64,000 nt of DNA from an uncultured Gammaproteobacteria bacterium (GTDB lineage: Bacteria > Patescibacteriota > Patescibacteriia > Magasanikbacterales > UBA922), in NCBI GenBank assembly GCA_964519725.1, contig CAZFKS010000001.1, positions 119,270 to 183,269 of the forward strand, written 5' to 3'. The notes under the pieces were generated by a model. The model made no database searches and was not told the origin of the DNA. It saw nothing but the letters and a program-made list of their open reading frames with translations. The position numbers were made by a program, and so were the translations under genes. This document shows positions 1,304 to 16,821 of this stretch, piece by piece (within the stretch, counting starts at the first letter, position 1; each line of letters opens with the position of its first letter).

Positions 1304-4264
1304 CTAAATTCTAAACTCACAAATAGAGCGGAAGTCACAGTGACTGCAGGCAAATTGATTTGGGGTGGCCGCAAAATCGCGCGCATAAATACGGTCAATC
1401 GTGTCCGAAATTTTTCCGCGTAGTTTATCAAGATCAGCCGGATCACCAATAAAACTGGCCTCAGAACCATTGCCTAGGTAGTAAAAAGTCAGCTTGCCAG
1501 TTGGACCAACGTGTCTAAATTCTGGCAAAGCTTCGGCTGCAATTTGGTAGATGAGGAGCTGCTCTTTATCTTCACTGGTTAGCTTTTCTTTTGGTTGTCC
1601 GGTTTTGTAGTCAATAATGTGGAGCGAGCCATCAGGGAGCTGATCCACCCGGTCCATCCGGCCGCGCACAGTGTAATTACCAATCTTAATTTTAAATGGC
1701 ATTTCGAGGCCGACTGGCTGGGTCCAGCGCCCGTCTTGGGCAGCGTAAAATTTTTTCAAAATGTCTTTCCCCTGCTCAAAAAATTTCGTTTGCTGTTGCT
1801 TGCTTTCATACCAATCAGGAATCCAGTGGTTTTGGTACATTTGCAAAAGTTCATCGAGAGTTGGAACTTTTAATTCACTGGTTGGATTTTCGGTTGGGGC
1901 TGGCACATCAAATAATGAGACTTGCGCCGCGCTATTTAATTCTTTCACACGCTGGTAAAAATCCTGCAAAGTCAGGTGAATACTTTGCCCAAAACTAAGA
2001 CTGGCTGAACTTTTGGTTGGCAATTTTAAAATGTGCGCCAGTTTATATTGATAAGGGCAAGTTTCGTACGATTTGATTTGCGAAAAGGAAAATATTGGCG
2101 GAACCTCATACACTGGCGGCGCTGTGTCTCTACCCTCGTTAGATTTAGGGGCATTCTTCCCCACTCCATCAATTATGGCGCGGACAGTGTTATTTTCTGG
2201 AGCCACCAGGCCAGCCTCAACAATAAAACGCGACACTTTTTTACTCCGCACCCCACCATAATTTTGCGCACTCAAAATAAACAAACGTTCTTTGGCGCGT
2301 GTGGCCGCCACGTAAAACAAGCGCCGTTCTTCTTGGTAATGCACATCACCAGTTGGCACAGATTCGTGAATTAATTCTGGCGGCACTTCAATTCCCTCAC
2401 CACGCCGACGCGTTGGAAAGCGCTCTTCAACTACATTTACCAAAAACACATATTTAAATTCCAAACCTTTAGAACTATGCACTGTCAAAATATTGACGCT
2501 GTCTGGCGTGTCTTCCACTGGATTCACTGCCCCGTCATCACCCGCTTCTTGCACGGCCCGAATATATTCAATGAGGTGGGCCACGTGCGCATCAGTGGTG
2601 TTGTCTTCAAAAGCCGCAATTTGATCAAAAAATTGTTTTAAATGGTGAATTTGACGAATAATGGTGCGGTCGCCAGCCAATTCACCTTTGGTTAAATATT
2701 CCAAATACCCACTGCTTTCTAAAAACGAATACAGGAGCGCGGTTGGTTTGGCGGTTTTGCTTTCATTGCAAGCCGCCTCAATTAAACTATGAAGTTTGGC
2801 TAGATGTCCGCGTCCGGTTTCAGTAATATTTTGGCACTCTGGGGCGCGGTGCAAAGCTTCAAAATAACTCCAAGATTTTTTGCGCGCTTCACTTATGAGC
2901 GCCTGAATATCTGTGGCGAGTAAATTAAAAATTGGTAAATGCAACAATCGGAAAATTGATAAATCATCGCGCGTTTGGTGCGCCGCGGTTAAGAGGGCCA
3001 GTGCATCCAGCACAATTGGTTGACGATACAAACCAGCCGCGGATAAAAATTCATACGGAATGCGCGCTGATTCTAGGGCCCGAATAAATGGCTCAGCGTG
3101 ATTATTCGCTCGGACCAAAATTGCAAAATCATCCCACGACGCGGTTTGATCACTTTGTTTTTGGGTGGTTAATAATTCTAGTAATCGGTGGACTTCGTCA
3201 TCGCCAGTGGCGACTTGTTCGTAACACACCGGAATTTGACCAGCTGGCATTTTTTCCCACTCGCGCGCCGCGATTAATTTTTTATTAATTTGCAAAACTG
3301 ACTCCAAGCGTTCTGGATTATTATTTTGAATCACAGTGTAGGCGGTGTCTAAAATTTCTTGGCGTGAGCGAAAATTTTCCGTGAGTACAATGTTGGTAAC
3401 ATTTTTAAAATCATCTTTGAAGCGCAAAATGTTCGAGACTGATGCACCGCGGAAAGCGTAAATCGATTGGTCATCATCCCCCACTACGGTCAGCTGTCCG
3501 CCGGCGGAAATTAATTGCACCAAAACATATTGGGCCCAATTTACGTCCTGAAACTCATCGACCAAAACAAATTTGTAGCGCTTGTTTAGGCGCTCTTTGA
3601 TGCGCGGCCGGTCTTGCAAAAGTTTGACACTGTAATACATCAAGTCACCAAAATCCAGACCACCAGCATCCAGCACTAATTTATTGTAGGCATAGTAGGC
3701 ATTGGCTAGTTCGGTGAGCCGCGATTTTTCGTCTACATTATCGTCGCCACTATCATGCGCGGTATTTTCGGCCAATTCCAAATATTTTTCTGGGGCAATT
3801 AATTCGTCTTTGCACTTGGAGAAATGTGCAAGCAAATCATGAATATATTTGCCTGGGTTCCCAAGTGGGCGGTAATAATCAAGCCCAAGGTCAAAAATAT
3901 TTTTGCGGACTAGTAACCAACTTTCAGTTTCAGTTAAAATTTTAAAATTGCGCGACAAACCAATTTCTGTGCCACACTCGCGCAGTAGTCGCTCAGCAAA
4001 GGCGTGAAAAGTAGAAACCGCCAAATCTAAATAACCAGAATTTAAACGCTCGTCCACGCGCGCAACCAGTTCGTCGGCCGCTTTGTCAGTAAAAGTTAAG
4101 GCCAAAATTTCTTCTGGTTTGGCCAGACCTTGTTCAATTAGGTAAGCAATTTTCTCGGTCAAGACCGTAGTCTTCCCTGTCCCAGCCCCAGCTACAATCA
4201 AAAGCGGACCAGTTACATGTTCCACGGCCGCGCGCTGGGTTTTGGTTAGATTAGCCATAGTCAC
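1304..4264 (-). CDS. UvrD/PcrA-family helicase fused to a C-terminal PD-(D/E)XK (Cas4/AddB-like, Cys-cluster) nuclease; AddA-like helicase-nuclease
   Basis: Walker A AGAGTGKT near the N-terminus, UvrD helicase motifs (VDEFQD, TVHSSKGLEF). C-terminal part has CPYQYK...CSHCDFRSIC cysteines typical of Fe-S RecB-family nucleases. Confidence 0.85.
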   Translation of the reverse strand: MTMANLTKTQRAAVEHVTGPLLIVAGAGTGKTTVLTEKIAYLIEQGLAKPEEILALTFTDKAADELVARVDERLNSGYLDLAVSTFHAFAERLLRECGTEIGLSRNFKILTETESWLLVRKNIFDLGLDYYRPLGNPGKYIHDLLAHFSKCKDELIAPEKYLELAENTAHDSGDDNVDEKSRLTELANAYYAYNKLVLDAGGLDFGDLMYYSVKLLQDRPRIKERLNKRYKFVLVDEFQDVNWAQYVLVQLISAGGQLTVVGDDDQSIYAFRGASVSNILRFKDDFKNVTNIVLTENFRSRQEILDTAYTVIQNNNPERLESVLQINKKLIAAREWEKMPAGQIPVCYEQVATGDDEVHRLLELLTTQKQSDQTASWDDFAILVRANNHAEPFIRALESARIPYEFLSAAGLYRQPIVLDALALLTAAHQTRDDLSIFRLLHLPIFNLLATDIQALISEARKKSWSYFEALHRAPECQNITETGRGHLAKLHSLIEAACNESKTAKPTALLYSFLESSGYLEYLTKGELAGDRTIIRQIHHLKQFFDQIAAFEDNTTDAHVAHLIEYIRAVQEAGDDGAVNPVEDTPDSVNILTVHSSKGLEFKYVFLVNVVEERFPTRRRGEGIEVPPELIHESVPTGDVHYQEERRLFYVAATRAKERLFILSAQNYGGVRSKKVSRFIVEAGLVAPENNTVRAIIDGVGKNAPKSNEGRDTAPPVYEVPPIFSFSQIKSYETCPYQYKLAHILKLPTKSSASLSFGQSIHLTLQDFYQRVKELNSAAQVSLFDVPAPTENPTSELKVPTLDELLQMYQNHWIPDWYESKQQQTKFFEQGKDILKKFYAAQDGRWTQPVGLEMPFKIKIGNYTVRGRMDRVDQLPDGSLHIIDYKTGQPKEKLTSEDKEQLLIYQIAAEALPEFRHVGPTGKLTFYYLGNGSEASFIGDPADLDKLRGKISDTIDRIYARDFAATPNQFACSHCDFRSICEFRI

Positions 4265-6319: not shown

Positions 6320-6586
6320 AACTTTGATTGTTTCGCCCTCAAAAATATCTTCGGCTTTACGCACGCCGGCTTTAACAGGTAACAAATATGCCCCTTCTTT
6401 GCTTGGGAAAATTGAGGTTTCCCAGGTGGTTTTGCCAATCGTGGCTTTGACGCGCACCGATCCCCAACCTTTTTTGGGGCGCGGCATGGCTTTAATTTTG
6501 GTCGTGGTTTTCTCATCAATGGTTACAAAATACCAAGCTCCGCTTTCGGCGGGGTATTTCCACAGTTTAGTGTTTAAAGTAAACAT
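6302..6586 (-). CDS. DUF1905 domain protein
   Basis: GSVRVKATIGKTTWETSIFPSKEGAYLLPVKAGVRKAEDIFEGETIKVLLE matches the DUF1905 pattern. 2-nt gap to the upstream DUF2075 gene. Confidence 0.55.
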   Translation of the reverse strand: MFTLNTKLWKYPAESGAWYFVTIDEKTTTKIKAMPRPKKGWGSVRVKATIGKTTWETSIFPSKEGAYLLPVKAGVRKAEDIFEGETIKVLLEFV

Positions 6587-6588
6587 AC

Positions 6589-8430
6589 TTAACCCACATG
6601 GTCTTTAAAATATTTTTCCGCTTCTTTATCCATAAAGTATACATAACAGCCTTTCATTCCGCGGGTCATGAGGGTGCGATAGGTATTTTTAATAATGGCA
6701 TTGGCTTTTTTAGTAGCTGCATCAGGGTCGATCTTGTGCAAAGTTTTAAAACCTTTAAGTGAGGTGTCAGTTTTGGCGCGGCCCTCTGGTACGCCAATTA
6801 CTTGGCCATTTCTCACAATTAAATCAGGACCAACAATTACGCCAATGTAATCAATTTCCAGGCCTTGGGCTGAATGAATGCAACCAACATCCTCCACTGA
6901 GGTTGGTGAAATAATCCAGGTATTGCGTTCACTATTTAAATTCCAGCGCATAGTAAAATTATGTTCTCGAATTTTAATATCCAGCAAATCTGGATTTTTC
7001 TCACTAATCCAATCCCAACACCGACCCGCTACAATCCGCGCTTTATTTCGTTCTTTATTTTTCTCGCGAATCAACTCTTGTAATTCTTGTGGTGAGTCAA
7101 CCACGCGAAAATCAAAGTCACCCGTTAATTGTGTGCCAGTATTTTTAATTTGCAAAGTATTGTCGAGCCAATCCAAAAAATTATCTGAGCCACCACACCG
7201 AAATTGAGAATTTAATTCTAAATAATGAATCCGCGCGCCGGCATTGGCCGCGCAGTGTTCAATTTCCACTTGACTACCAAAGTCATTCCAGGTCACTTTT
7301 TGGTCTTCATCTAAGAAAAATATAGAGCATTTGGCAGCCTGAATAATTTCGCGTACCTGATTACCGCCTTTTTTGCCATACATGCCAGTGCGTTCGTTCA
7401 GGCGGTGGGCTTCGTCTACAATCAAGGCTTCAAAAGTATTTGGCGCGATATTTTGGTAAGCACCAGAACCAGAAAAGAGTGCGCAAAATTCTTTAAAAGT
7501 CATTTTGTCCTTGAGCATGTGCTCATATACGGCGCGCGGCGCCGCGTTTTTGGTTACATATTGCGCGGCTTTCTGGGTACGGATTAGATTGATAAGTAAA
7601 TTAATCGCGACCACTGACTTCCCTGTCCCAGGCCCACCTTTAACAATTACCACCTGTTTATCTTTTGGTTTATTTACTAATTCCAAAATCGTTTCAAAAA
7701 CCACTTTTTGGTCATCAATCATGGTAAATTCTTCTTCGTTGTAAAGCGCGGCGGGCATTTGTTCGGCCACGCTGTGTGAGGGCTTAATCGCGCTTTGTTC
7801 AATTTTTTCTAAAATATCAGCAGCGCCAAATTGTAAGCGCTCGGCAATAAATTTTCTAAAAATATTTTCTTCACCTTTAAAAAATAAAGGTGCTTGATCC
7901 ACATATTCTTTATAAAAAATATTATCAATCACGCCATCCCGTTCATAATTGTGCAAATACACGCACGGCGTGACCACAATATTTTCCTGATGAATAACTT
8001 CAGTAAATCCGCGCAGTAAATTAGCATATACCAAAGCCTGATATGACGGATGAGCCACTTCCCTCTCAGTCGCACCCACAAAAGCTTTAATAACTCCGTC
8101 TTTTATAGTCATTTCAGCCGAGGTCCATTGCTTAAGCTCAATAATAACCACTTGATCTTTTTTCTCTTTATTTAGACCATACAAAATCACATCAATGCGT
8201 TTTCCTGTTGGCCGAACTTGATACTCAATCCCAATTTCCATATCACCCGGAATTTCTGGGGTATTCAAAACCTTACCCAGTGCTCCGAGCGATTGCTTCC
8301 ACGACTCCACTTCCCGTGCTCCACCGCCTCGGCCGAAATTCGCTTTCACCTTAGCCAAAACAATCGCCTCAATACGATTATTTTGTAGGTTCTCTAGAAA
8401 TTTAGTTTTGGTAGTGAGGTGGGAGATCAT
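6589..8430 (-). CDS. DUF2075-family (Schlafen-like) ATPase with an N-terminal nuclease-like domain
   Basis: Walker A VKGGPGTGKSV, Walker B LIVDEAHRL. N-terminal IDVILYG...VVIIELKQW resembles a restriction-endonuclease-like core. Last large gene of the hsd operon. Confidence 0.65.
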   Translation of the reverse strand: MISHLTTKTKFLENLQNNRIEAIVLAKVKANFGRGGGAREVESWKQSLGALGKVLNTPEIPGDMEIGIEYQVRPTGKRIDVILYGLNKEKKDQVVIIELKQWTSAEMTIKDGVIKAFVGATEREVAHPSYQALVYANLLRGFTEVIHQENIVVTPCVYLHNYERDGVIDNIFYKEYVDQAPLFFKGEENIFRKFIAERLQFGAADILEKIEQSAIKPSHSVAEQMPAALYNEEEFTMIDDQKVVFETILELVNKPKDKQVVIVKGGPGTGKSVVAINLLINLIRTQKAAQYVTKNAAPRAVYEHMLKDKMTFKEFCALFSGSGAYQNIAPNTFEALIVDEAHRLNERTGMYGKKGGNQVREIIQAAKCSIFFLDEDQKVTWNDFGSQVEIEHCAANAGARIHYLELNSQFRCGGSDNFLDWLDNTLQIKNTGTQLTGDFDFRVVDSPQELQELIREKNKERNKARIVAGRCWDWISEKNPDLLDIKIREHNFTMRWNLNSERNTWIISPTSVEDVGCIHSAQGLEIDYIGVIVGPDLIVRNGQVIGVPEGRAKTDTSLKGFKTLHKIDPDAATKKANAIIKNTYRTLMTRGMKGCYVYFMDKEAEKYFKDHVG

Positions 8431-8438
8431 TTTAAAAT

Positions 8439-8990
8439 TTACCTTGAAATAGTATCAAAATTTTGCAATTCTTTTCTTATATCAGCATACTTAGGCATGG
8501 CTCTAGCAACCAATTCCCAAAATTTCTTAGAATGATTTAATTCTTTTAAATGACATAGCTCATGCACGACAATATAATCCACCAAATAATCTGGCAAAAA
8601 CAAAATTTTATAATTAAAATTAAGATTCTTTTGTCCGGAACAACTCCCCCATTTAGTACTCTGTTGCTTAATACTAATGCGGTTATAAGAAAAATTATAC
8701 AATTCATTATAATGTACAACTCTTTCCTTAATTAATTTCCTAGCACGTTTAGCACAGGCATGATAATTTGTTTGTGGAAAATCCCTAGAGATTTCCTTCT
8801 TTTCTTTTTTTTGGAAAAACAAAATTTTAGACTTGATCCATTCGGCTTTTTCAGTGATGTATTTTTCCACCCCAGACAAATCAAATCCTTTTGGTACAAC
8901 CACTGAAACTCGAGCATCACAATTCACAACGATTCTTAGTCGCCGTGCTCGTTCACTTTCTTTAACCGAGTAAGCAATGCCGTGAGACAT
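8439..8990 (-). CDS. DUF45/YgjP (COG1451, WLM/M48-like) zinc metallohydrolase
   Basis: HExxH motif VVHELCHLKELNH. This family is a well-known neighbour of type I hsdR genes. Confidence 0.75.
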   Translation of the reverse strand: MSHGIAYSVKESERARRLRIVVNCDARVSVVVPKGFDLSGVEKYITEKAEWIKSKILFFQKKEKKEISRDFPQTNYHACAKRARKLIKERVVHYNELYNFSYNRISIKQQSTKWGSCSGQKNLNFNYKILFLPDYLVDYIVVHELCHLKELNHSKKFWELVARAMPKYADIRKELQNFDTISR

Positions 8991-8991
8991 G

Positions 8992-11931
8992 TTAAAACTT
9001 TTTAATGATTACATCGACTAAGCGATTGAGTAATTGATTTCGTTCAATGTCTTTGGTTAGGTTACCAAAATCTTTCCAAATTAATTCCTGCAAGGTTTGC
9101 TTGGTATTTTTAACAAACACATCTCGTTTTGATGACTCTTGCCAACCAGCATCAAGATCAGCTTCAACTCGAATCCGAACTTCTTTTACAAATTTTTGAA
9201 TCTCCTCGCCCTTTGTATCTTTTACAAACTCCTGTGAGATAACATACAGAGCATATTCTTTTAGATCAAGGCCTAATTCCTTAGCCTCTTCAGCTTTGGT
9301 TTTAATATCACTCATCAATTCCTCATAGCGACGAATTCTTTCGGCCAAATCAATCTGGTTTTGTTCAAATTGACGACGAATTGAAGTGAGACGCTCACTA
9401 AATTTAACAAACACGGGATTTTCATCCAAATTGATTGAAATTTCTTGTTTAAGCATCTTCTCCAAATTGAGCGCTTTTTCTTCTTCATCCATTCCCTTAA
9501 GTCGTTCAAGTGTATACAAATCATTCACACGCAACTCACGGAAATTTTTAGTAATTCCCTCGTAATCAATGATATTACTTTTTTGAATCAGAGCGCGAAC
9601 TTTTTCGCCATACTCTTCAAGAAGATACTTATCATCTTCACTCCGAAATTCCTTCAAAAAGGCCAAATAAAAACCGGTCACCCATTCAAATGGTCTAATT
9701 GATGGTTTCAAAAATGGATCCGGAGACAGAAACTCAAACAAACTCTTTAATTTTAAGTATTTCTCCACAAAGTATTTTTGCTTGTCCTGATTGTCAATAA
9801 AAATTTTCAAACAACGGCGTAAATTATCCATTGATGGGTCCTCAATATTTACACCAGTAAATATTTTCATGACATCATTCAACACATCGGTAAACAGATC
9901 TTTGATTCTGGCAATATCAATCATGGCTGAATCAATTATCTCTTCGTCAAAATCGAGCGCATCGTACAAATTTCGGGTAATTCCGTAATAATCAATAATC
10001 TTCCCGGCTTCTTTGTTTTTATATACCCGGTTAGTACGGGCAATGGCTTGCAAAAGATTATGGTCACGTAAAGGTTTATCCAAATACATGACTTGTTCAA
10101 TTGGTGCATCAAAACCAGTGAGCAACATGTCGCAAACCAATAAGAATTTAAGCGGTGACTTTGGGTCTTTGAATTGCTCAATAATCTGTTCACGTTCCCG
10201 TTTACTGGTGTTATAGACTTTCAAATCATCGGCATCACTATTTGGATCTCCAGGTGAATACACCACTGCCGACCATTCAGCTGGAACTAATTTATCCAGC
10301 AGTGTTTTATAAGCAGCCACGGCTTCACGATCATAGGCCACAATCTGAGCCTTAAAGCCGTTTGGTTCCACATACAGCTTGTAATGTTCCACAATATCTC
10401 GCGCCACTGCTTCCATCCGCTTGGGTAATTTTACCAAAGCTGCTTTTTTACCATATTTCTTTACCAATTCAGTTTTTTGTTTATCCGATAAATCACCAGC
10501 AATCTCTTCAAACTGTTCATCCAACTTAGTTTCATCAATCGAAAATTTAGACAGCCGCGCTTCATAGGTCATGGGAATAGTCGCGCCATCTTCAATTGCC
10601 TGTTGAATTGAATAGTAGTCTAAATAACGTTGACCTTCCCCTTCATAATTGCGGAAGGTATTGGTGTGCGCTTTATCCACAGGCGTACCAGTAAAGCCAA
10701 AGAAAAAGGCTTTCTTGAACGCATTACGCATGTTAATCCCCGATACCCCCTCGTCGCCTCGGTGTGCCTCATCGGACAGAACAATCACATTTTCATCTAA
10801 ATTTTCTACTTTGTCACCCAATTCAGAAAACTTTTGAATAGTGGTAATAAAAATCCCTTTTTCTGGTGACTGAATTTTTTCTTCTAAATCCTTGCGAGAA
10901 GTCACGCGGATAATATTCTTTCCACCGGCATTGATGAAGGTTTCAAAAATTTGGTCATCCAAATCTACCCGGTCAACCAAAATAAATACCTTAGGATTGG
11001 CTAATTCTTTATTAAAGCGCAATTTCCAGGCCGTAAAGTACATGGTCAAGGTCTTTCCTGACCCTTGGGTATGCCAAATTAAACCTTGGTGTTTTTCTTT
11101 TTTAACTACCCGGTCAACGATCTTATTAGTGGCCCGCATTTGCTGGTAACGGGCAATTTTCTTTACCACTCGCTCTTTTTCTTTTTCAAACAGAATAAAG
11201 TTTTGAATAATATCCAAGAAGTTATTCTTTGAAAGTAAAGAAATAAGGGTAACATCTAAACTAGCATCGTCTACATAATGACCTTTCCCTATCATAGACT
11301 TGGCTAGGTCATCATCACGCCACTGTAAAAAGTACTGCTTTGGTGCACCAGTCGCTCCGTAGACAGTTTTAAGGCCATCAGTGGCAATATTAAAGCAGTT
11401 AGGGATAAATAATTTACGAGCCACTTTTTCGTAACGCTTAATCTGATCAATCCCATTCTCAAAACTAACACCTTCCGAAGCAGTCGGACTTTTAGCTTCA
11501 ATATCTACTAATGGAATACCATTTAAAAAAATCAAAATATCCGGCCGAATATTTTCCGTATCACCTTCAAAATAAAATTGGTTAGTAACCACAAACTGAT
11601 TATTTTCAGGATTATCAAAATCAACTAATTTGTAATCTTGAAAATCACCAGTACTTGGATTTCGCAAATTAATCCCTTCACGCAAAGCTTTTAAAAATTC
11701 CTCATTAGAGTCAATCTTTTTAACCTCGCGAATAACATTACTAACCTCACTCACAGTTACCCCTGGATTAAGCCCCGCAATCGCCCGCTCCAAAAACGGA
11801 ACAATAATATACTCAACCTCAAGGTCGCGTAACTTAGCAAATTCCTCTGGCTTAATATACTCAAAACCAAGCTTATCCTTAATAAACTTAATAATGTAAT
11901 TTTCAATTGTGACTTGTTCGTTGAATTTCAT
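8992..11931 (-). CDS. hsdR: type I restriction enzyme R subunit
   Basis: 979 aa. N-terminal nuclease core (RPDILIF...DIEAKSP), helicase motif I HTQGSGKTLTM, DEAH box SDEAHR, motif VI QAIARTNR. Confidence 0.9.
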   Translation of the reverse strand: MKFNEQVTIENYIIKFIKDKLGFEYIKPEEFAKLRDLEVEYIIVPFLERAIAGLNPGVTVSEVSNVIREVKKIDSNEEFLKALREGINLRNPSTGDFQDYKLVDFDNPENNQFVVTNQFYFEGDTENIRPDILIFLNGIPLVDIEAKSPTASEGVSFENGIDQIKRYEKVARKLFIPNCFNIATDGLKTVYGATGAPKQYFLQWRDDDLAKSMIGKGHYVDDASLDVTLISLLSKNNFLDIIQNFILFEKEKERVVKKIARYQQMRATNKIVDRVVKKEKHQGLIWHTQGSGKTLTMYFTAWKLRFNKELANPKVFILVDRVDLDDQIFETFINAGGKNIIRVTSRKDLEEKIQSPEKGIFITTIQKFSELGDKVENLDENVIVLSDEAHRGDEGVSGINMRNAFKKAFFFGFTGTPVDKAHTNTFRNYEGEGQRYLDYYSIQQAIEDGATIPMTYEARLSKFSIDETKLDEQFEEIAGDLSDKQKTELVKKYGKKAALVKLPKRMEAVARDIVEHYKLYVEPNGFKAQIVAYDREAVAAYKTLLDKLVPAEWSAVVYSPGDPNSDADDLKVYNTSKREREQIIEQFKDPKSPLKFLLVCDMLLTGFDAPIEQVMYLDKPLRDHNLLQAIARTNRVYKNKEAGKIIDYYGITRNLYDALDFDEEIIDSAMIDIARIKDLFTDVLNDVMKIFTGVNIEDPSMDNLRRCLKIFIDNQDKQKYFVEKYLKLKSLFEFLSPDPFLKPSIRPFEWVTGFYLAFLKEFRSEDDKYLLEEYGEKVRALIQKSNIIDYEGITKNFRELRVNDLYTLERLKGMDEEEKALNLEKMLKQEISINLDENPVFVKFSERLTSIRRQFEQNQIDLAERIRRYEELMSDIKTKAEEAKELGLDLKEYALYVISQEFVKDTKGEEIQKFVKEVRIRVEADLDAGWQESSKRDVFVKNTKQTLQELIWKDFGNLTKDIERNQLLNRLVDVIIKKF

Positions 11932-11938
11932 ATATTTA

Positions 11939-12991
11939 TTAAAATGAAATTTCGCTTAGATTAATTTCTTCAATGGGCTTAATTTTTTCCTCGAGATTCT
12001 TAATTTCTAATTCGACATCAGTCTCCTCCCCTTCTTTTTGAATCGTTGCTCTGATAATTGCCCAAGTTTCAGGGTCAAAAAGTTCAGGTTTTGGTAATAA
12101 ATGCTCTCTATAAAAAGAGTTTGTATCTTGATCGTTAATTACCCAACGTACTTGGCTGTTTTCTAACAATGCATTTGCAAGTCCTTTAATTTGGGAGTCA
12201 TTAAAACTACTATACTTTGAAAGCTTACTCACTAAATCATGCGTAGTTAAAAAATTTGGACTATTGATCAATCCTTGCACTAAACTATCTTTTTCTTGCT
12301 CAACTCTCAGCTGAATTTTAATATCATGCTCAGAAAAAAATCTAGTGAGACTTTTATAAAAAAATATTTCATTCTCTGGATGAACTTTTTTCCACTCTTC
12401 CACTAAATAATCCTTAGCAAGATTTTCATCAATGGGATGCGAGTAATCTCCGTCCTTACTCAAAAGGATAAATTCTCCTTCTCCTTCGACTTCAGCCAAC
12501 AGTGCTTCCCAATTAATCTCATCACCGTAACTCCTATCCTTTTTACCTGGTGGTCGCCCCAGCCGATGTCTTTTTATAGATTGAGGTAAATATGCATCTG
12601 ATTCAATAATTTTACTCTCAGAAATAAGATCTTGAATTACCTTATCTGCCTTTAAAGTATGTTTTTGGATATCATTCCACAACTTTTTACTCAATTGTGC
12701 TTTTAGCTTGTCTAGAATATTTTGAGCACGCTTTATGTCAGTATATTCGTCATAGTGTTTACAGAATGGAGGCATTGTTAAAGTTGGTTTTGATTTAGCA
12801 AATTCCCCATAAGCCACTTTAAGTCTTACTTCACGATTTCGTTTAACCTCATCACAGACTTGGGAGGTAAGGAAAAGCTTAATTTCTCCAGACTTAATAA
12901 AATCAACTAATTTTGCAAGTTGAGTCAAATCTTCATCGTGAAAATCGTAAAAGTTGAGAAAAATATTTGAATCTATAAATAGTAATTTCAT
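11939..12991 (-). CDS. hypothetical protein with N-terminal PIN-like predicted nuclease fold, embedded between hsdS and hsdR
   Basis: LLFIDSNIF (acidic residue on beta-1), QVCDEV helix, LLSKDGD are spaced as the conserved PIN acidic positions. C-terminal about 170 aa unassigned. 4-bp overlap with hsdS. Confidence 0.35.
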   Translation of the reverse strand: MKLLFIDSNIFLNFYDFHDEDLTQLAKLVDFIKSGEIKLFLTSQVCDEVKRNREVRLKVAYGEFAKSKPTLTMPPFCKHYDEYTDIKRAQNILDKLKAQLSKKLWNDIQKHTLKADKVIQDLISESKIIESDAYLPQSIKRHRLGRPPGKKDRSYGDEINWEALLAEVEGEGEFILLSKDGDYSHPIDENLAKDYLVEEWKKVHPENEIFFYKSLTRFFSEHDIKIQLRVEQEKDSLVQGLINSPNFLTTHDLVSKLSKYSSFNDSQIKGLANALLENSQVRWVINDQDTNSFYREHLLPKPELFDPETWAIIRATIQKEGEETDVELEIKNLEEKIKPIEEINLSEISF

Positions 12992-14226
12992 ACTTGTTTT
13001 TTTCCACTCAGCAAATCTTGCATCAAGCCATTTTTGAGTAAAGTAAGTTTTGTTTTTAATTTTTTATTTACCGAAATTTTTTCATCAACAGCGGAAATAA
13101 TTTCTGCAATTTTTTCCTGCTCTTTCTTTTGTGGCAGGACAATTAAAAGTGGATTAAGTTTTTCCAAATTAATATTTTTTTGAGCGGATTGGGTAGAAAT
13201 ACTGTTAAGATACTCTTTTTGAGTTCTTAAATAATATTCCAAAAAAATCGGATTAATTTTTTCTTTACAAGAAATGCCCACCAAGCTATCAGGAAAGCAC
13301 GAATCAAACTCTAATATTCCAGTATCGCCAATGTTCGCGGCAATTGTAATAACGATAGTGCCTTTTTTAAACAATTTACTCACAGATAGACCTTTTTCGT
13401 TAAGTGTTTGGGTGTACTTTTTTATTCTTCCGTCTGAGCTGATAACATCACCAGTCTGTATAAATGGAATTTCCCCTCCATAAAATTCTGGTGCATTTCT
13501 CGGTCTATGAGAAAACTTACCCCGCTCCACAAGTGCAACGTCAGAAAGTCTTACGATATTCCACTCTTCCGGAATTTGTCCGATTTCTGTTTCCTTAAAT
13601 TTAGTATGCCCAATCCCATTTGTAAAAAGCTGCATCATTAGCCCGTGCTTGAGTTTTTCCGCAGATTTAATCACTTCATGCGTTTTAGTAATATCTTCAT
13701 CCACCGTCCTCAAAATCCCAGCAATCTTTTGTTGTTCTTTGATTGGGGGTAGTAAAACTTCTATACTTTCAACTTGGCTGGAGCTTATATTTTTTTGAGC
13801 CGCACCAATAAAATACTTCTCAAGTTTTGATATAAAATCTTTGTACAAAAATACTTGAAATGTAAAATCAGGATCTAAATCCTTATCTTTAAAGACAACA
13901 CGTCCTACGCGTTGATTTAAAATTGCTGGAAGATATTTCTTGTCAATTCGCGCTACTTTACCAAGTTCGCCAGTCATGCCCATCAAGATATCATTTTCTC
14001 TTAAGTGTACAGATTCATTGTTAGCATACCCATCTTCAGATATATACACAAAATCATTAGCCACAAAGTCTCCTTTGCCAACATTACCAATACGCACAAG
14101 CGGAATACCATCATTTACATAATTTGACGCGTTAAACGCATTGCCTCCTTGAAGCTTTATATGCCTTCCAATCGGAAGTAATTCCCACCCCTTAGGGATA
14201 TTTTGCTGTATCATGTTGGTTTTCAT
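12988..14226 (-). CDS. hsdS: type I restriction-modification specificity subunit (two target-recognition domains)
   Basis: 412 aa. Repeated TRD plus conserved spacer helices (LLPPIKEQQKIAGIL... and VLPQKKEQEKIAEII...) typical of HsdS. Confidence 0.85.
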   Translation of the reverse strand: MKTNMIQQNIPKGWELLPIGRHIKLQGGNAFNASNYVNDGIPLVRIGNVGKGDFVANDFVYISEDGYANNESVHLRENDILMGMTGELGKVARIDKKYLPAILNQRVGRVVFKDKDLDPDFTFQVFLYKDFISKLEKYFIGAAQKNISSSQVESIEVLLPPIKEQQKIAGILRTVDEDITKTHEVIKSAEKLKHGLMMQLFTNGIGHTKFKETEIGQIPEEWNIVRLSDVALVERGKFSHRPRNAPEFYGGEIPFIQTGDVISSDGRIKKYTQTLNEKGLSVSKLFKKGTIVITIAANIGDTGILEFDSCFPDSLVGISCKEKINPIFLEYYLRTQKEYLNSISTQSAQKNINLEKLNPLLIVLPQKKEQEKIAEIISAVDEKISVNKKLKTKLTLLKNGLMQDLLSGKKQV

Positions 14227-15128
14227 ACTATGTTATTTGAAACCCATTTAATTGAACCAGCAATAGAAGCGTTCAAAACTTGTAGACAAATTTTTGCAGT
14301 ATGAATATCTGGTGAAAATTTTGAAATACTTTGTTCGTAAGGATGGATATAATTGCGAAAATCTCGCAGAGCGTGTCCAAATTTCTTTACATCCAATCCA
14401 ATCACGCCGAGTTCGTGAGCCACGTCAATAAGACCAGCAAGCTTCCAATCAGGTAACGGTAAAACTTTTCCAGTTTTGTCTTTCGGACTTGCATTAGCTG
14501 ATTGAAATTTTTGAGGATGTTTTACTGCGATACCAAATAAAATTCCTTCCAGCGTACTGCCAGCCATAATAACAGAAGATAAAGGCGACTTGTATTGTAG
14601 ACATTGGCGAGATTCTAGAATACGCTCTTTTAATATACTCTCTATTGCCGCATCAAGACCGAGCTTGGAAATGTCATTTTCATCAAAATCTTTTTTTAAA
14701 AACTCTTCTTCAGAATCAATTGATGTATTTTTTGTATCTATTATTGGGCCGACAGACTCCTTTAAATACTTTAGAATAGGGTCACGGCCTTGAAAAGCAA
14801 CACTCATGTTCTCCATAGACAAAATATCGTTCATCGCTTTTGCAGCCATCTCCAATTTAGCTCTATCTGCCTTGTACTCCCTTATATCAACAAGCCTCAA
14901 AATCACTTTTTCAAGGTCATTCAATGTTAATTGTTTGAGCAGTTCAAGTACCCACCATTTTCGAGTACTACCATCATGGGTCACATTTATATTTATATTT
15001 TGAAAAAAACGAGTTAAATAACCTGAAGATCTATATTCCGGGTACTTTTGCGCCACATCTCCACAAATAAAATCAGCAAGGGCATCAAGTGTCGCGGGAT
15101 CTAATTTATTTTTTAAAAATACCGCCAT
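14223..15128 (-). CDS. hypothetical protein, HEPN-like (Rx6H motif) Abi/DUF4145-type candidate embedded between hsdM and hsdS
   Basis: C-terminal HALRDFRNYIHPYEQ contains an R-x6-H motif in a helical context. The position equals that of known HEPN/Abi insertions in type I R-M operons. Otherwise no strong motif. Confidence 0.3.
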   Translation of the reverse strand: MAVFLKNKLDPATLDALADFICGDVAQKYPEYRSSGYLTRFFQNININVTHDGSTRKWWVLELLKQLTLNDLEKVILRLVDIREYKADRAKLEMAAKAMNDILSMENMSVAFQGRDPILKYLKESVGPIIDTKNTSIDSEEEFLKKDFDENDISKLGLDAAIESILKERILESRQCLQYKSPLSSVIMAGSTLEGILFGIAVKHPQKFQSANASPKDKTGKVLPLPDWKLAGLIDVAHELGVIGLDVKKFGHALRDFRNYIHPYEQSISKFSPDIHTAKICLQVLNASIAGSIKWVSNNIV

Positions 15129-15129
15129 A

Positions 15130-16821
15130 CTAATATTTCAATTCCTTGAGATATTCGTCCACCTTTTTATCAATAATATCCCGCTCTTTTTCAATTTCCT
15201 TTACCTGAGCCCACACGGTTTTTACATCAATGTTTTCTTCTTCATCAGCATTTTCCACATAGCGACGAACATTGAGGTTGTATTCGTTTTCTGCTAATTC
15301 TTTGGTGTCAATAACGCGGGCGTATTTTTCGATATCACGGTAATTTTCAAAGGCGGAGACAATTTTTTCAATATCAACCTTACGCAAACGGTTTTGATTT
15401 TTTCCTTCTTCGTAATCTTGTTCGGCGTCAACAATGAGGATTTTATTTTTGTGATCGACTGGCTTATTTTTGTTAAAAATTACAATTGCAGCCGGAATAC
15501 CTGTTCCGTAAAAAAGTTTAGCTGGGAGTGCGATGATGGCTTCAATTAAGTCATTTTTAATGAGTTGTTCACGAATACGGCCTTCGGCCCCGCCACGAAA
15601 AAGCACGCCATGAGGAAGTACAATGCCAGCGCGACCATTTTCATTCATTGATTTAACTAAATGCATGACAAAGGCATAGTCCGCATTTTTGGCTGGCGGC
15701 ATTTCATATCCAGCGGCTCGTTTATAACTATCTGATTTAAATTTTTCGTAAGCGTAGTCCTTAATCGAGTACGGTGGATTACTAATGCAGATGTCGAATG
15801 TTTTGAGTGTACCATCTGGGTTGAGGAACTTCGGGTCAGCCAGTGTGTCCCCGCGTTGAATGTCCGCACTATCCAGTCCATGCAAGAACATGTTGATTTT
15901 GGCAATGGCGTAGGTGCCAATATTAATTTCTTGTCCGTAGAGGTAAAGTGAACGGGCCTTTTTTTCACCAGCTTCATTCTTTAAATGGTGATATGCTTCC
16001 AACAAAAAACCACCTGAACCAGCGGCCATGTCGTAAATATGGTCTTTCTCATGTGGCTTTAAAATATTAATAATTACACGTTCAACTTCGCGCGGTGTGT
16101 AGAAACTACCACCTTTTTTACCACCATCAGCAGCAAATTGTTGGATGAGGTATTCATAAGCATCACCTAAAAGGTCGGTACTAATGTAGTTGTCGCCAAA
16201 ATTATGCTTGGAAAAATGATTGATTAGTTTTTGCAAAATTTCATTGGGAAATTTGTCTTTATTGGCAAAATCCAGATCGTCAAAAATACGGTCCAGTTTT
16301 GGACTATTGGCAGTAGTGAGGTCATCAAAAATAGTATTGAGTTTTTGGCCAATACCTTCGGCTTGCTGTTGAATGACTTCCCAACGACAATGACTCGGGA
16401 CTTGAAAACGATGGTTATAATCAGCCCGAGCCACTTCTTCATCATGATATTCTTCTAGGACTTTTTTATATTCTTCGTCCCACACATCACTAATGCGCTT
16501 GTAAAAAAGAAGACCGAAAATATATTTTTTGTAATCAGCACTATCAATGCGGTCGCGCAAAATATCCGCACTGCTCCACAAAAATTGCTTGAGTTGAGTG
16601 AGGTTCATTTTTCCCTCGTCGTTGGTCAGCGAGCTGCCCAAGTCTTTGACAATACTTTTGTCATTGGCGATTCGTTCAATATCCTCGGGCTTATATTTAC
16701 GGTCTTTGCGAGGACCAACCCGTAAAGGGGTTATGAGCCCTTTTTTCTCCCAGTTGCGGAGAGTGTCTTGATGAATGCCAAAAATGGTTGAGACTTCGCT
16801 AATACTGAGTAGATTGGCCAT
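15130..16821 (-). CDS. hsdM: type I restriction-modification N6-adenine DNA methyltransferase M subunit with N-terminal MerR-type HTH extension
   Basis: NPPY motif ISNPPYS, SAM motif DMAAGSGGFL, HsdM N-domain (LWSSADILR). First about 50 aa LSISEVSTIFGIHQDTLRNWEKKGLITP is an HTH_17/MerR-like helix-turn-helix. Confidence 0.9.
   Translation of the reverse strand: MANLLSISEVSTIFGIHQDTLRNWEKKGLITPLRVGPRKDRKYKPEDIERIANDKSIVKDLGSSLTNDEGKMNLTQLKQFLWSSADILRDRIDSADYKKYIFGLLFYKRISDVWDEEYKKVLEEYHDEEVARADYNHRFQVPSHCRWEVIQQQAEGIGQKLNTIFDDLTTANSPKLDRIFDDLDFANKDKFPNEILQKLINHFSKHNFGDNYISTDLLGDAYEYLIQQFAADGGKKGGSFYTPREVERVIINILKPHEKDHIYDMAAGSGGFLLEAYHHLKNEAGEKKARSLYLYGQEINIGTYAIAKINMFLHGLDSADIQRGDTLADPKFLNPDGTLKTFDICISNPPYSIKDYAYEKFKSDSYKRAAGYEMPPAKNADYAFVMHLVKSMNENGRAGIVLPHGVLFRGGAEGRIREQLIKNDLIEAIIALPAKLFYGTGIPAAIVIFNKNKPVDHKNKILIVDAEQDYEEGKNQNRLRKVDIEKIVSAFENYRDIEKYARVIDTKELAENEYNLNVRRYVENADEEENIDVKTVWAQVKEIEKERDIIDKKVDEYLKELKY

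Follow-up and report, generated by a model that had tools for sequence, protein, structure and literature searches.

PrrC and RloC, the classic restriction-linked second-line nucleases, are HEPN-type proteins. PrrC, which is encoded in the EcoprrI hsd operon, combines an ABC-ATPase N-domain with a HEPN-like nuclease C-domain; it is held by the type I enzyme and activated by an anti-restriction factor, forming a second line behind restriction. Its gene is cited as almost exclusively type I-embedded. Here we examine a gene that stands where prrC does, with hsdS on one side and hsdR on the other, in a type I restriction-modification (RM) operon on a 64,000-nucleotide stretch of DNA from a Patescibacteriota genome assembly (GCA_964519725.1, contig CAZFKS010000001.1); the whole stretch is referred to below as the window. 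The gene (11939..12991, minus strand) encodes a predicted PIN nuclease domain followed by a helical C-terminal domain and an acidic tail, as judged from the open reading frame (ORF), Pfam matches, 89 homologues and an AlphaFold2 (AF2) model. The likeness to PrrC lies in where the nuclease gene stands, at the junction of hsdS and hsdR, but the proteins differ, PrrC being an ABC-ATPase joined to a HEPN-like domain and the window protein a PIN protein without an ATPase; PrrC is also almost always embedded, whereas the window family is mostly solo. We interpret the PIN gene as an autonomous single-protein anti-phage nuclease module, nested in an acquired type I RM operon and co-expressed with it, a reading to which we assign an even chance of being correct.

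The family to which this protein belongs was added to the PIN-like superfamily, as DUF4935 of the VapC-like group, by Matelska et al. in 2017, with its function given as unknown (PMC5499597). Its members were described as proteins of ~350 residues, encoded mostly by mono-cistronic genes; in their N-terminal PIN domain of ~200 residues strand 2 is followed by a long helical insert and strand 3 by two helices, and the C-terminal part is without known fold (PMC5499597). The window protein agrees with this description in profile score, length, insert, helices and C-terminal extension; its gene, however, is nested in and coupled to an hsd operon. It is a member of a catalogued, functionally uncharacterised family whose structural identity as a PIN protein has already been published at family level, and the embedding of defence genes in type I operons is likewise an already described phenomenon.

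The same Pfam domain (PIN_12) occurs in Cosus (Brc24), a single protein from an integron cassette with a ‘PIN12’ domain that abolishes T7 plaques and confers >1e5-fold protection, an effect that the substitutions T12A, D14A and D96A weaken >1e5-fold (bioRxiv 10.1101/2024.07.02.601719). Because Cosus blocks T7, a PIN_12 domain can serve as effector in an anti-phage system made of one gene. For comparison we used an approximate Cosus sequence, stitched from Table S3 of that work after optical character recognition and corrected with the mutagenesis primers. This sequence (~384 residues) matches PIN_12 at 113.8 bits over residues 11-181. Outside PIN_12, the approximate sequence aligned to the window family with an hhalign probability of 0.7% and gave no match to PDC-S34, a PADLOC profile discussed below; with a different C-terminal half, Cosus was rejected as a member of the same family beyond the common Pfam domain. 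In the stitched sequence the conserved PIN aspartate is D14 (within ITIDN), which may be why D14A, and not D6A, weakens Cosus defence, and the likely catalytic glutamate lies in an HNE motif at about residue 52 and not at the mutated E42 or D47.

Several lines of evidence establish that the window ORF is a gene. It starts with ATG and runs for 350 codons, an outcome with a chance probability of ~1e-11 at the local GC content of ~0.34, where ~7% of random codons are stops; together with the 89 database homologues, all of which carry PF16289, and a Pfam match above threshold, this argues against a chance ORF. Its start codon (12991-12989) runs into the hsdS stop codon TGA (12990-12988), giving a 4-bp ATGA overlap of the two genes at 12988..12991 that can be read directly from the sequence, and the hsdR start codon at 11931 lies 7 bp past its own TAA stop codon. 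The 4-bp overlap and the place at the hsdS/hsdR junction had been noted in the original prediction, made from the sequence alone and without naming a strand; the coordinates are exact, and Pfam confirms both flanking hsd genes. This arrangement indicates that the PIN gene is translationally coupled to hsdS through the ATGA motif and also to hsdR.

The N-terminal region had been proposed to carry the acidic-residue spacing of a PIN domain, and profile searches for PIN-like families together with a structure prediction bear this out. Residues 4-183 span model positions 1-172 of 172 in Pfam PIN_12 (PF16289, formerly DUF4935); the score is 77.4 bits, where 32 is the cut-off. PIN_8 matches at 33.7 bits, also above its cut-off. 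The domain families detected are PIN families only, with no ATPase domain among them. An AF2 model built from 46 homologues (predicted local distance difference test score, pLDDT, 88; predicted template modelling score, pTM, 0.70) places the PIN domain at residues 1-222 (12326..12991, minus strand) and shows five parallel strands (residues 2-6, 37-42, 127-129, 172-177 and 207-212) interleaved with helices in a three-layer α/β/α fold, as in the VapC-like group of the PIN-like superfamily. Helices at residues 43-66, 75-79, 81-109 and 114-125 precede strand 3, and two further helices (131-144 and 156-167) follow it. The insertion expected within the domain corresponds to the helical region at residues 66-125 (12617..12796, minus strand), which is seen in the AF2 secondary structure between strand 2/helix 3 and strand 3; an invariant R141 and a G-x-P-P-G-K loop (residues 145-150), both specific to the family, come after it.

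The three motifs named in the original prediction, FIDSN (residues 5-9), QVCDEV (44-49) and LLSKDGD (176-182), are all present. The predicted catalytic acids are D7 (12971-12973), E48 (12848-12850), D157 (12521-12523) and D180 (12452-12454), all on the minus strand. In a profile alignment these four residues coincide with the four canonical acidic positions of the archaeal PIN protein AF1683. Two more acids, D182 and D116, accompany them; D7, E48, D116, D157 and D180 do not vary, and D182 hardly does, among 46 homologues with identities down to 24%. By homology of the fold, the acidic residues would be expected to cluster in space. Taken together, these features identify a VapC-like PIN domain with an intact predicted four-acid metal site, D7/E48/D157/D180. 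Searching the Protein Data Bank with the single sequence returned nothing usable, and the profile search returned only a marginal match, 1w8i. The top fold matches are RNA-cleaving VapC proteins, with PcrIIC1 as the second-best structural match. VapC proteins differ from the window protein, which is twice as long, lacks a VapB and carries a ~60-residue insert of helices as well as a further domain and a tail at its C-terminal end; PcrIIC1, an accessory PIN protein of type II-C Cas9, differs in being a 134-residue single domain bound to the C-terminal helix of Cas9. DARNA was considered as a relative and rejected, since it is a HEPN and not a PIN protein and is an architectural analogue only.

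The C-terminal part had been left unassigned. No Pfam family covers these ~130-160 residues, so the statement holds in that sense, but the region is not an orphan. The AF2 model is all-helical over residues 229-336, with a fold that matches only generic helical repeats, and we delimit an all-helical domain at residues 226-320 (12032..12316, minus strand) with the conserved motifs L-x-N-S-x-x-F-x-x-T-H and N-S-Q-V...D-x-D. An exhaustive HMMER search with residues 195-350 recovered 658 cluster representatives (50% identity clusters), in which the match always falls at about residues 195-320 of proteins of ~320-350 residues. A PIN_12 or PIN_8 domain precedes it in all eight of the C-domain matches checked, unusually long and short ones included. 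These observations point to a fixed two-domain architecture of PIN and C-domain.

The C-terminal domain also connects the protein to PDC-S34, which, in Payne et al. 2024, belongs to a candidate set drawn by a guilt-by-embedding screen from genes embedded in operons for BREX, DISARM or type I RM. The PADLOC profile matches window residues 224-297 at profile positions 293-366 only (E=1e-13), and positions ~275-380 of 384 are matched at E-values of 1e-11 to 1e-18 by the window protein and 10 of the 11 relatives tested. The C-terminal helical domain is thus common to both, whereas the N-terminal ~270 profile positions of PDC-S34 find no match in the window protein. Because only the last ~100 of 384 positions match, we regard the window protein as a sister of PDC-S34 and not as a member.

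To place the gene in context, we assembled 92 loci from exact-protein look-ups and 80 species-level loci, and annotated HsdM, HsdS and HsdR by means of profiles that were derived from these same loci. The family is patchy and occurs in many phyla, with at least 342 tblastn-confirmed relatives among at least 599 pattern matches in 185,579 species genomes. Writing M, S and R for the hsd genes, P for the PIN gene and X for another embedded gene, the gene is nested as M-X-S-P-R in the window and in locus L013, as M-Abi_alpha-S-P-AbiJ-like-R in L006, as M-S-P-R in L009 and L010, as S-P-R in L012 and L061 and as P-R in L014. A second slot is used in L007, L008, L015, L019 and L021, where the order is M-P-S-R with 4-bp overlaps and an EcoEI-type HsdR. 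The partner HsdR is accordingly of two types across the loci, carrying either T1RH-like_C or EcoEI_R_C. Among the species-level loci with at least 45% identity to the window protein, mostly from Patescibacteria, nine of ten lie within or beside RM-type genes.

Some close relatives sit among other defence-type genes. A 65%-identical relative (L001) lies beside GmrSD-HNH, RmuC and NYN genes, and the 8 kb to each side of it contain no called type I genes. In L002 (3267..10574), L003 and L017, a 47%-identical homologue stands between a helicase (HTH-DEAD/ResIII, where HTH denotes helix-turn-helix) and two methyltransferases, a locus type that we classify as an unclassified RM-like or mobile defence unit. 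Its helicase has 685 residues and is followed by an 82-residue ORF, the methyltransferases have 334 and 916 residues (N6_Mtase/Eco57I-like), and a serine recombinase gene adjoins the locus.

Most of the family lives apart from type I systems: at 64 of the 92 loci, no type I gene lies within 10 kb. The neighbours of ~40 solo copies (two ORFs per side, within 3.5 kb) span 137 Pfam families, and defence or mobilome genes among them are few (AAA_15/AAA_21 four times, integrases three times, resolvases twice and Mrr twice). A 31%-identical two-domain member is found on 27 plasmid records, 24 of them from Escherichia or Salmonella. The carrier plasmids that were inspected are P1-like phage-plasmids, and phage JL22 also carries a homologue. 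The P1-like plasmid homologue (WP_023153803.1, 316 residues) is encoded in L092 (NZ_CP069570.1) at 6995..7945, between a gene for a 2054-residue SNF2-type protein and ref/cre.

These data lead us to favour the autonomous nuclease module. Autonomy is supported by the 64 loci that lack a nearby type I gene, the diversity of solo neighbours, the mostly mono-cistronic organisation of the family and the finding that the ORF list of the window holds no antitoxin-like ORF adjoining the PIN gene. An association with defence is supported by nesting in type I operons in two slots and with two HsdR types, by the neighbours in L001 and the L002-type loci, by carriage on P1-like phage-plasmids and by the PDC-S34 match. 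Cosus supplies a precedent from experiment, and the low GC content and close packing of the gene block fit an island. An autonomous module would also explain in one stroke why most copies are solo, why an antitoxin gene is missing, why slot and partner vary and why the architecture is fixed. Mechanistically, the PIN domain would act as a Mg2+/Mn2+-dependent endonuclease with RNA as its most likely substrate, a choice suggested by the similarity to VapC-like folds. The C-terminal domain and the tail would hold the nuclease silent until an infection cue. Once released, it would provide an independent second defence layer of the abortive-infection type beside restriction and would not be a subunit of the restriction enzyme; nesting in the operon would serve co-inheritance and co-expression.

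Some points weigh against this interpretation. The subclade with at least 45% identity could depend on Hsd, given that nine of its ten loci are linked to RM genes. PcrIIC1, the second-best structural match, works with a DNA-targeting enzyme, which bears on whether RNA or DNA is the substrate. The likeness of Cosus to the window protein is limited to the PIN_12 domain. Finally, a regulatory or sensory role of the C-terminal domain and the tail is a proposal only.

The window gene had originally been interpreted as a toxin-like RNase backing up restriction. The structural half of that interpretation is upheld by the profile match, the fold and the conserved acids, and the functional half is plausible only, with the recurrence of the gene in type I operons of different families and the anti-phage activity of Cosus in its favour. 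Copies on P1-like phage-plasmids and beside defence genes of other kinds speak against a coupling specific to restriction. The most concrete version of the functional half would be a back-up of the PrrC kind, in which the PIN protein lies latent on the type I enzyme and is freed as an RNase when a phage anti-restriction factor disables that enzyme. The prrC-like position between hsdS and hsdR, translational coupling on both sides, the nine of ten RM-linked loci in the close subclade and a second RNase-type (HEPN) gene in the same operon all fit such a model. It is harder to reconcile with the 64 loci without a type I gene within 10 kb, with a slot that varies between M-P-S-R and M-S-P-R, with HsdR partners from different families (T1RH-like_C or EcoEI_R_C) and with the 65%-identical relative beside GmrSD and RmuC, around which no type I genes were called for 8 kb each way; the window protein also lacks the ABC-ATPase sensor. 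We consider PrrC-like action unlikely because the family as a whole does not need Hsd, although it is possible for the Patescibacteria subclade. A physical partnership of another kind, in which the protein docks on the restriction complex as a pro-restriction accessory and contributes a nuclease or DNA-binding function that boosts the breakdown of foreign DNA, is suggested by the likeness in structure to PcrIIC1 and the role of PcrIIC1 with Cas9. Since most family members have no type I system nearby, the best overall fold matches are RNA-cleaving VapC proteins and PcrIIC1, at 134 residues, is far shorter than 350, we judge this decidedly improbable.

Two further explanations were weighed. The gene could encode a toxin for addiction or stabilisation, or a nuclease that processes RNA, and simply hitch-hike in the island; many solo members have housekeeping neighbours, and VapC-like PIN proteins are classic toxins of toxin-antitoxin systems. 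Yet no cognate antitoxin gene is present, the distribution is patchy across many phyla, nesting recurs exactly at the gene junctions of defence operons, copies ride on P1-like phage-plasmids and the PIN_12-domain protein Cosus has anti-phage activity. We regard a non-immune role as improbable, and the idea that the protein is catalytically dead and serves the hsd operon as scaffold or regulator as highly so. The latter idea can draw on regulatory-looking parts of the operon, such as the MerR-type HTH on HsdM, and on nothing specific; against it, the four canonical acids and D182 and D116 are all present and invariant or nearly invariant in the 46 homologues. The invariant active site and the genomic contexts make both of these explanations less likely. 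Two narrower toxin-antitoxin arrangements were rejected. A classic VapBC pair has no VapB-like antitoxin gene to build on, the neighbours being hsdS upstream and hsdR downstream, and a separate C-domain ‘antitoxin’ made from an internal start would find no in-frame Met after M73.

The acidic tail of the protein offers a further and more speculative clue. Residues 321-350 (11942..12031, minus strand) are modelled at low confidence (pLDDT 55-70) and end in ...EEINLSEISF. Comparison with homologue tails indicates that this end is a degenerate copy of a [D/E]-[I/L/V]-P-F tip found in the family, SEISF having Ser in place of Pro; relatives 87-88% identical to the window protein end in LPF. Of the 92 locus copies, 28 have the strict tip, as do 19 of the 77 cluster representatives that are full-length; 32 of these 77 end in PF. 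The strict tip is absent from all 4232 other ORFs of the same loci. Tip-bearing tails have a variable acidic linker, as in ...DDDDDIPF (P0061), ...DDDDDDLPF and ...KEDDEIPF, with further examples in P0075, L050 and L040. Solo and embedded members alike possess the strict tip, and the E. coli plasmid homologue is without it.

Such ends resemble the C-terminal tips of SSB (the protein that binds single-stranded DNA), which read FDDDIPF in E. coli and LDDEIPF in R. sphaeroides (PMC13490951). Partners of SSB hold the terminal Phe in a pocket and contact the carboxylate and the Asp residues through basic side chains (PMC10164576), and phage RecT/Redβ recombinases also use the SSB tip (PMC13490951). 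About 40% of the family clusters share with SSB a flexible acidic tail ending in [D/E]-[I/L/V]-P-F-COOH; the family tail differs in not being joined to an oligonucleotide/oligosaccharide-binding (OB)-fold that binds single-stranded DNA (ssDNA), and the window copy is degenerate. All five alpha-proteobacterial strict tips are [D/E]EIPF, as in alpha-proteobacterial SSB, and all three from Bacteroidota are [D/E]LPF; shared ancestry could explain this lineage-wise match equally well. Our literature searches turned up no description of SSB-tip mimics in PIN or defence proteins.

Judged from tail sequences, the PIN_12/C-domain tail may conceivably be a functional SSB-tip mimic, acting as a decoy or adaptor for SSB partners or as a pseudo-substrate in cis, a proposal that we treat as a long shot. 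As a decoy or adaptor, the tail would bind proteins that normally attach to the SSB of the host, such as factors of replication and repair or the single-strand-annealing recombinases of phages, and a defence nuclease would thereby gain a new way of being triggered or targeted. As a pseudo-substrate, it would mask the nuclease in cis until displaced. Cutting by a type I enzyme makes ssDNA and recombination intermediates, and on the SSB-mimic reading, nesting in type I operons would join it to a nuclease whose target is the SSB interactome.

The PIN gene belongs to a tight block of genes, all on the minus strand, that runs from 16821 to 6589 with intergenic spacings of -4 to +8 bp. The block begins with hsdM (15130..16821; 563 residues; Pfam N6_Mtase 1e-107, HsdM_N and MerR_1), followed by a second embedded gene (14223..15128; 301 residues) for an unassigned N-terminal domain and a C-terminal HEPN-fold domain with an invariant R-D-F-R-N-x-I-H-P. 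After hsdS (12988..14226; 412 residues; Pfam Methylase_S 3e-45 in two stretches) and the PIN gene comes hsdR (8992..11931; 979 residues; Pfam HSDR_N, SWI2_SNF2, ResIII, T1R_D3-like and T1RH-like_C). A YgjP-like metallopeptidase gene (8439..8990; Pfam YgjP-like 7e-45) starts 1 bp after hsdR, and the block closes with a DUF2075/Schlafen-group-3-type helicase gene (6589..8430; 613 residues; Pfam SLFN-g3_helicase 1e-96). The GC content of the hsd block (0.33-0.37 over window positions 8000..15500) is below the ~0.44 of the flanks, which gives it the look of a horizontally acquired island. Genes in the flanks are ordinary and include TspO, NUDIX, an RRM protein, an AddA-like helicase-nuclease, DUF1295 and PIF1. 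Nearly all genes of the 64-kb window lie on the minus strand. No Rfam RNAs were found near the PIN locus.

Several features of this block recur elsewhere. Operons that are alike in other respects differ in the cargo of the slot between hsdM and hsdS: the window carries a HEPN gene there, L006 carries Abi_alpha, and L013 has a UvrD-like helicase (7295..8878). In L006 a further, AbiJ_NTD4-like gene separates the PIN gene from hsdR (the two cargo genes of L006 lie at 3420..4238 and 6446..7303). These type I operons behave as cassette carriers. The MerR-type HTH at the N-terminus of HsdM (MerR_1 1e-11, residues 6-65) is fused in the same way in L006 and may autoregulate the operon. A YgjP-like gene directly 3′ of hsdR is found in the window, in L006 (10227..10775) and in L013 (13984..14553), with further copies nearby in L001 and L007; the paper that we checked offered no support for proteolytic activation of the PIN nuclease by a YgjP-like peptidase. 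The 613-residue DUF2075 helicase matches the PADLOC candidate PDC-S41 (6e-17), and Nhi and AbiO weakly, and is possibly a further defence gene of the same transcription unit.

The family is widespread, with its 658 clusters spread over many phyla, and the copies on P1-like phage-plasmids of E. coli make testing easy. The SSB-tip-like tail, for which we found no prior description, would, if functional, represent a new targeting or trigger route for a defence nuclease; together with the double HEPN/PIN loading of one operon, it is the part of this locus most worth following up. Should the window protein prove to be an active anti-phage nuclease, a PIN-type effector would join the short list of restriction-linked second-line nucleases, and a single 10-kb operon would combine restriction with a HEPN-fold protein, a nuclease of the PIN type and a defence candidate of the helicase type.

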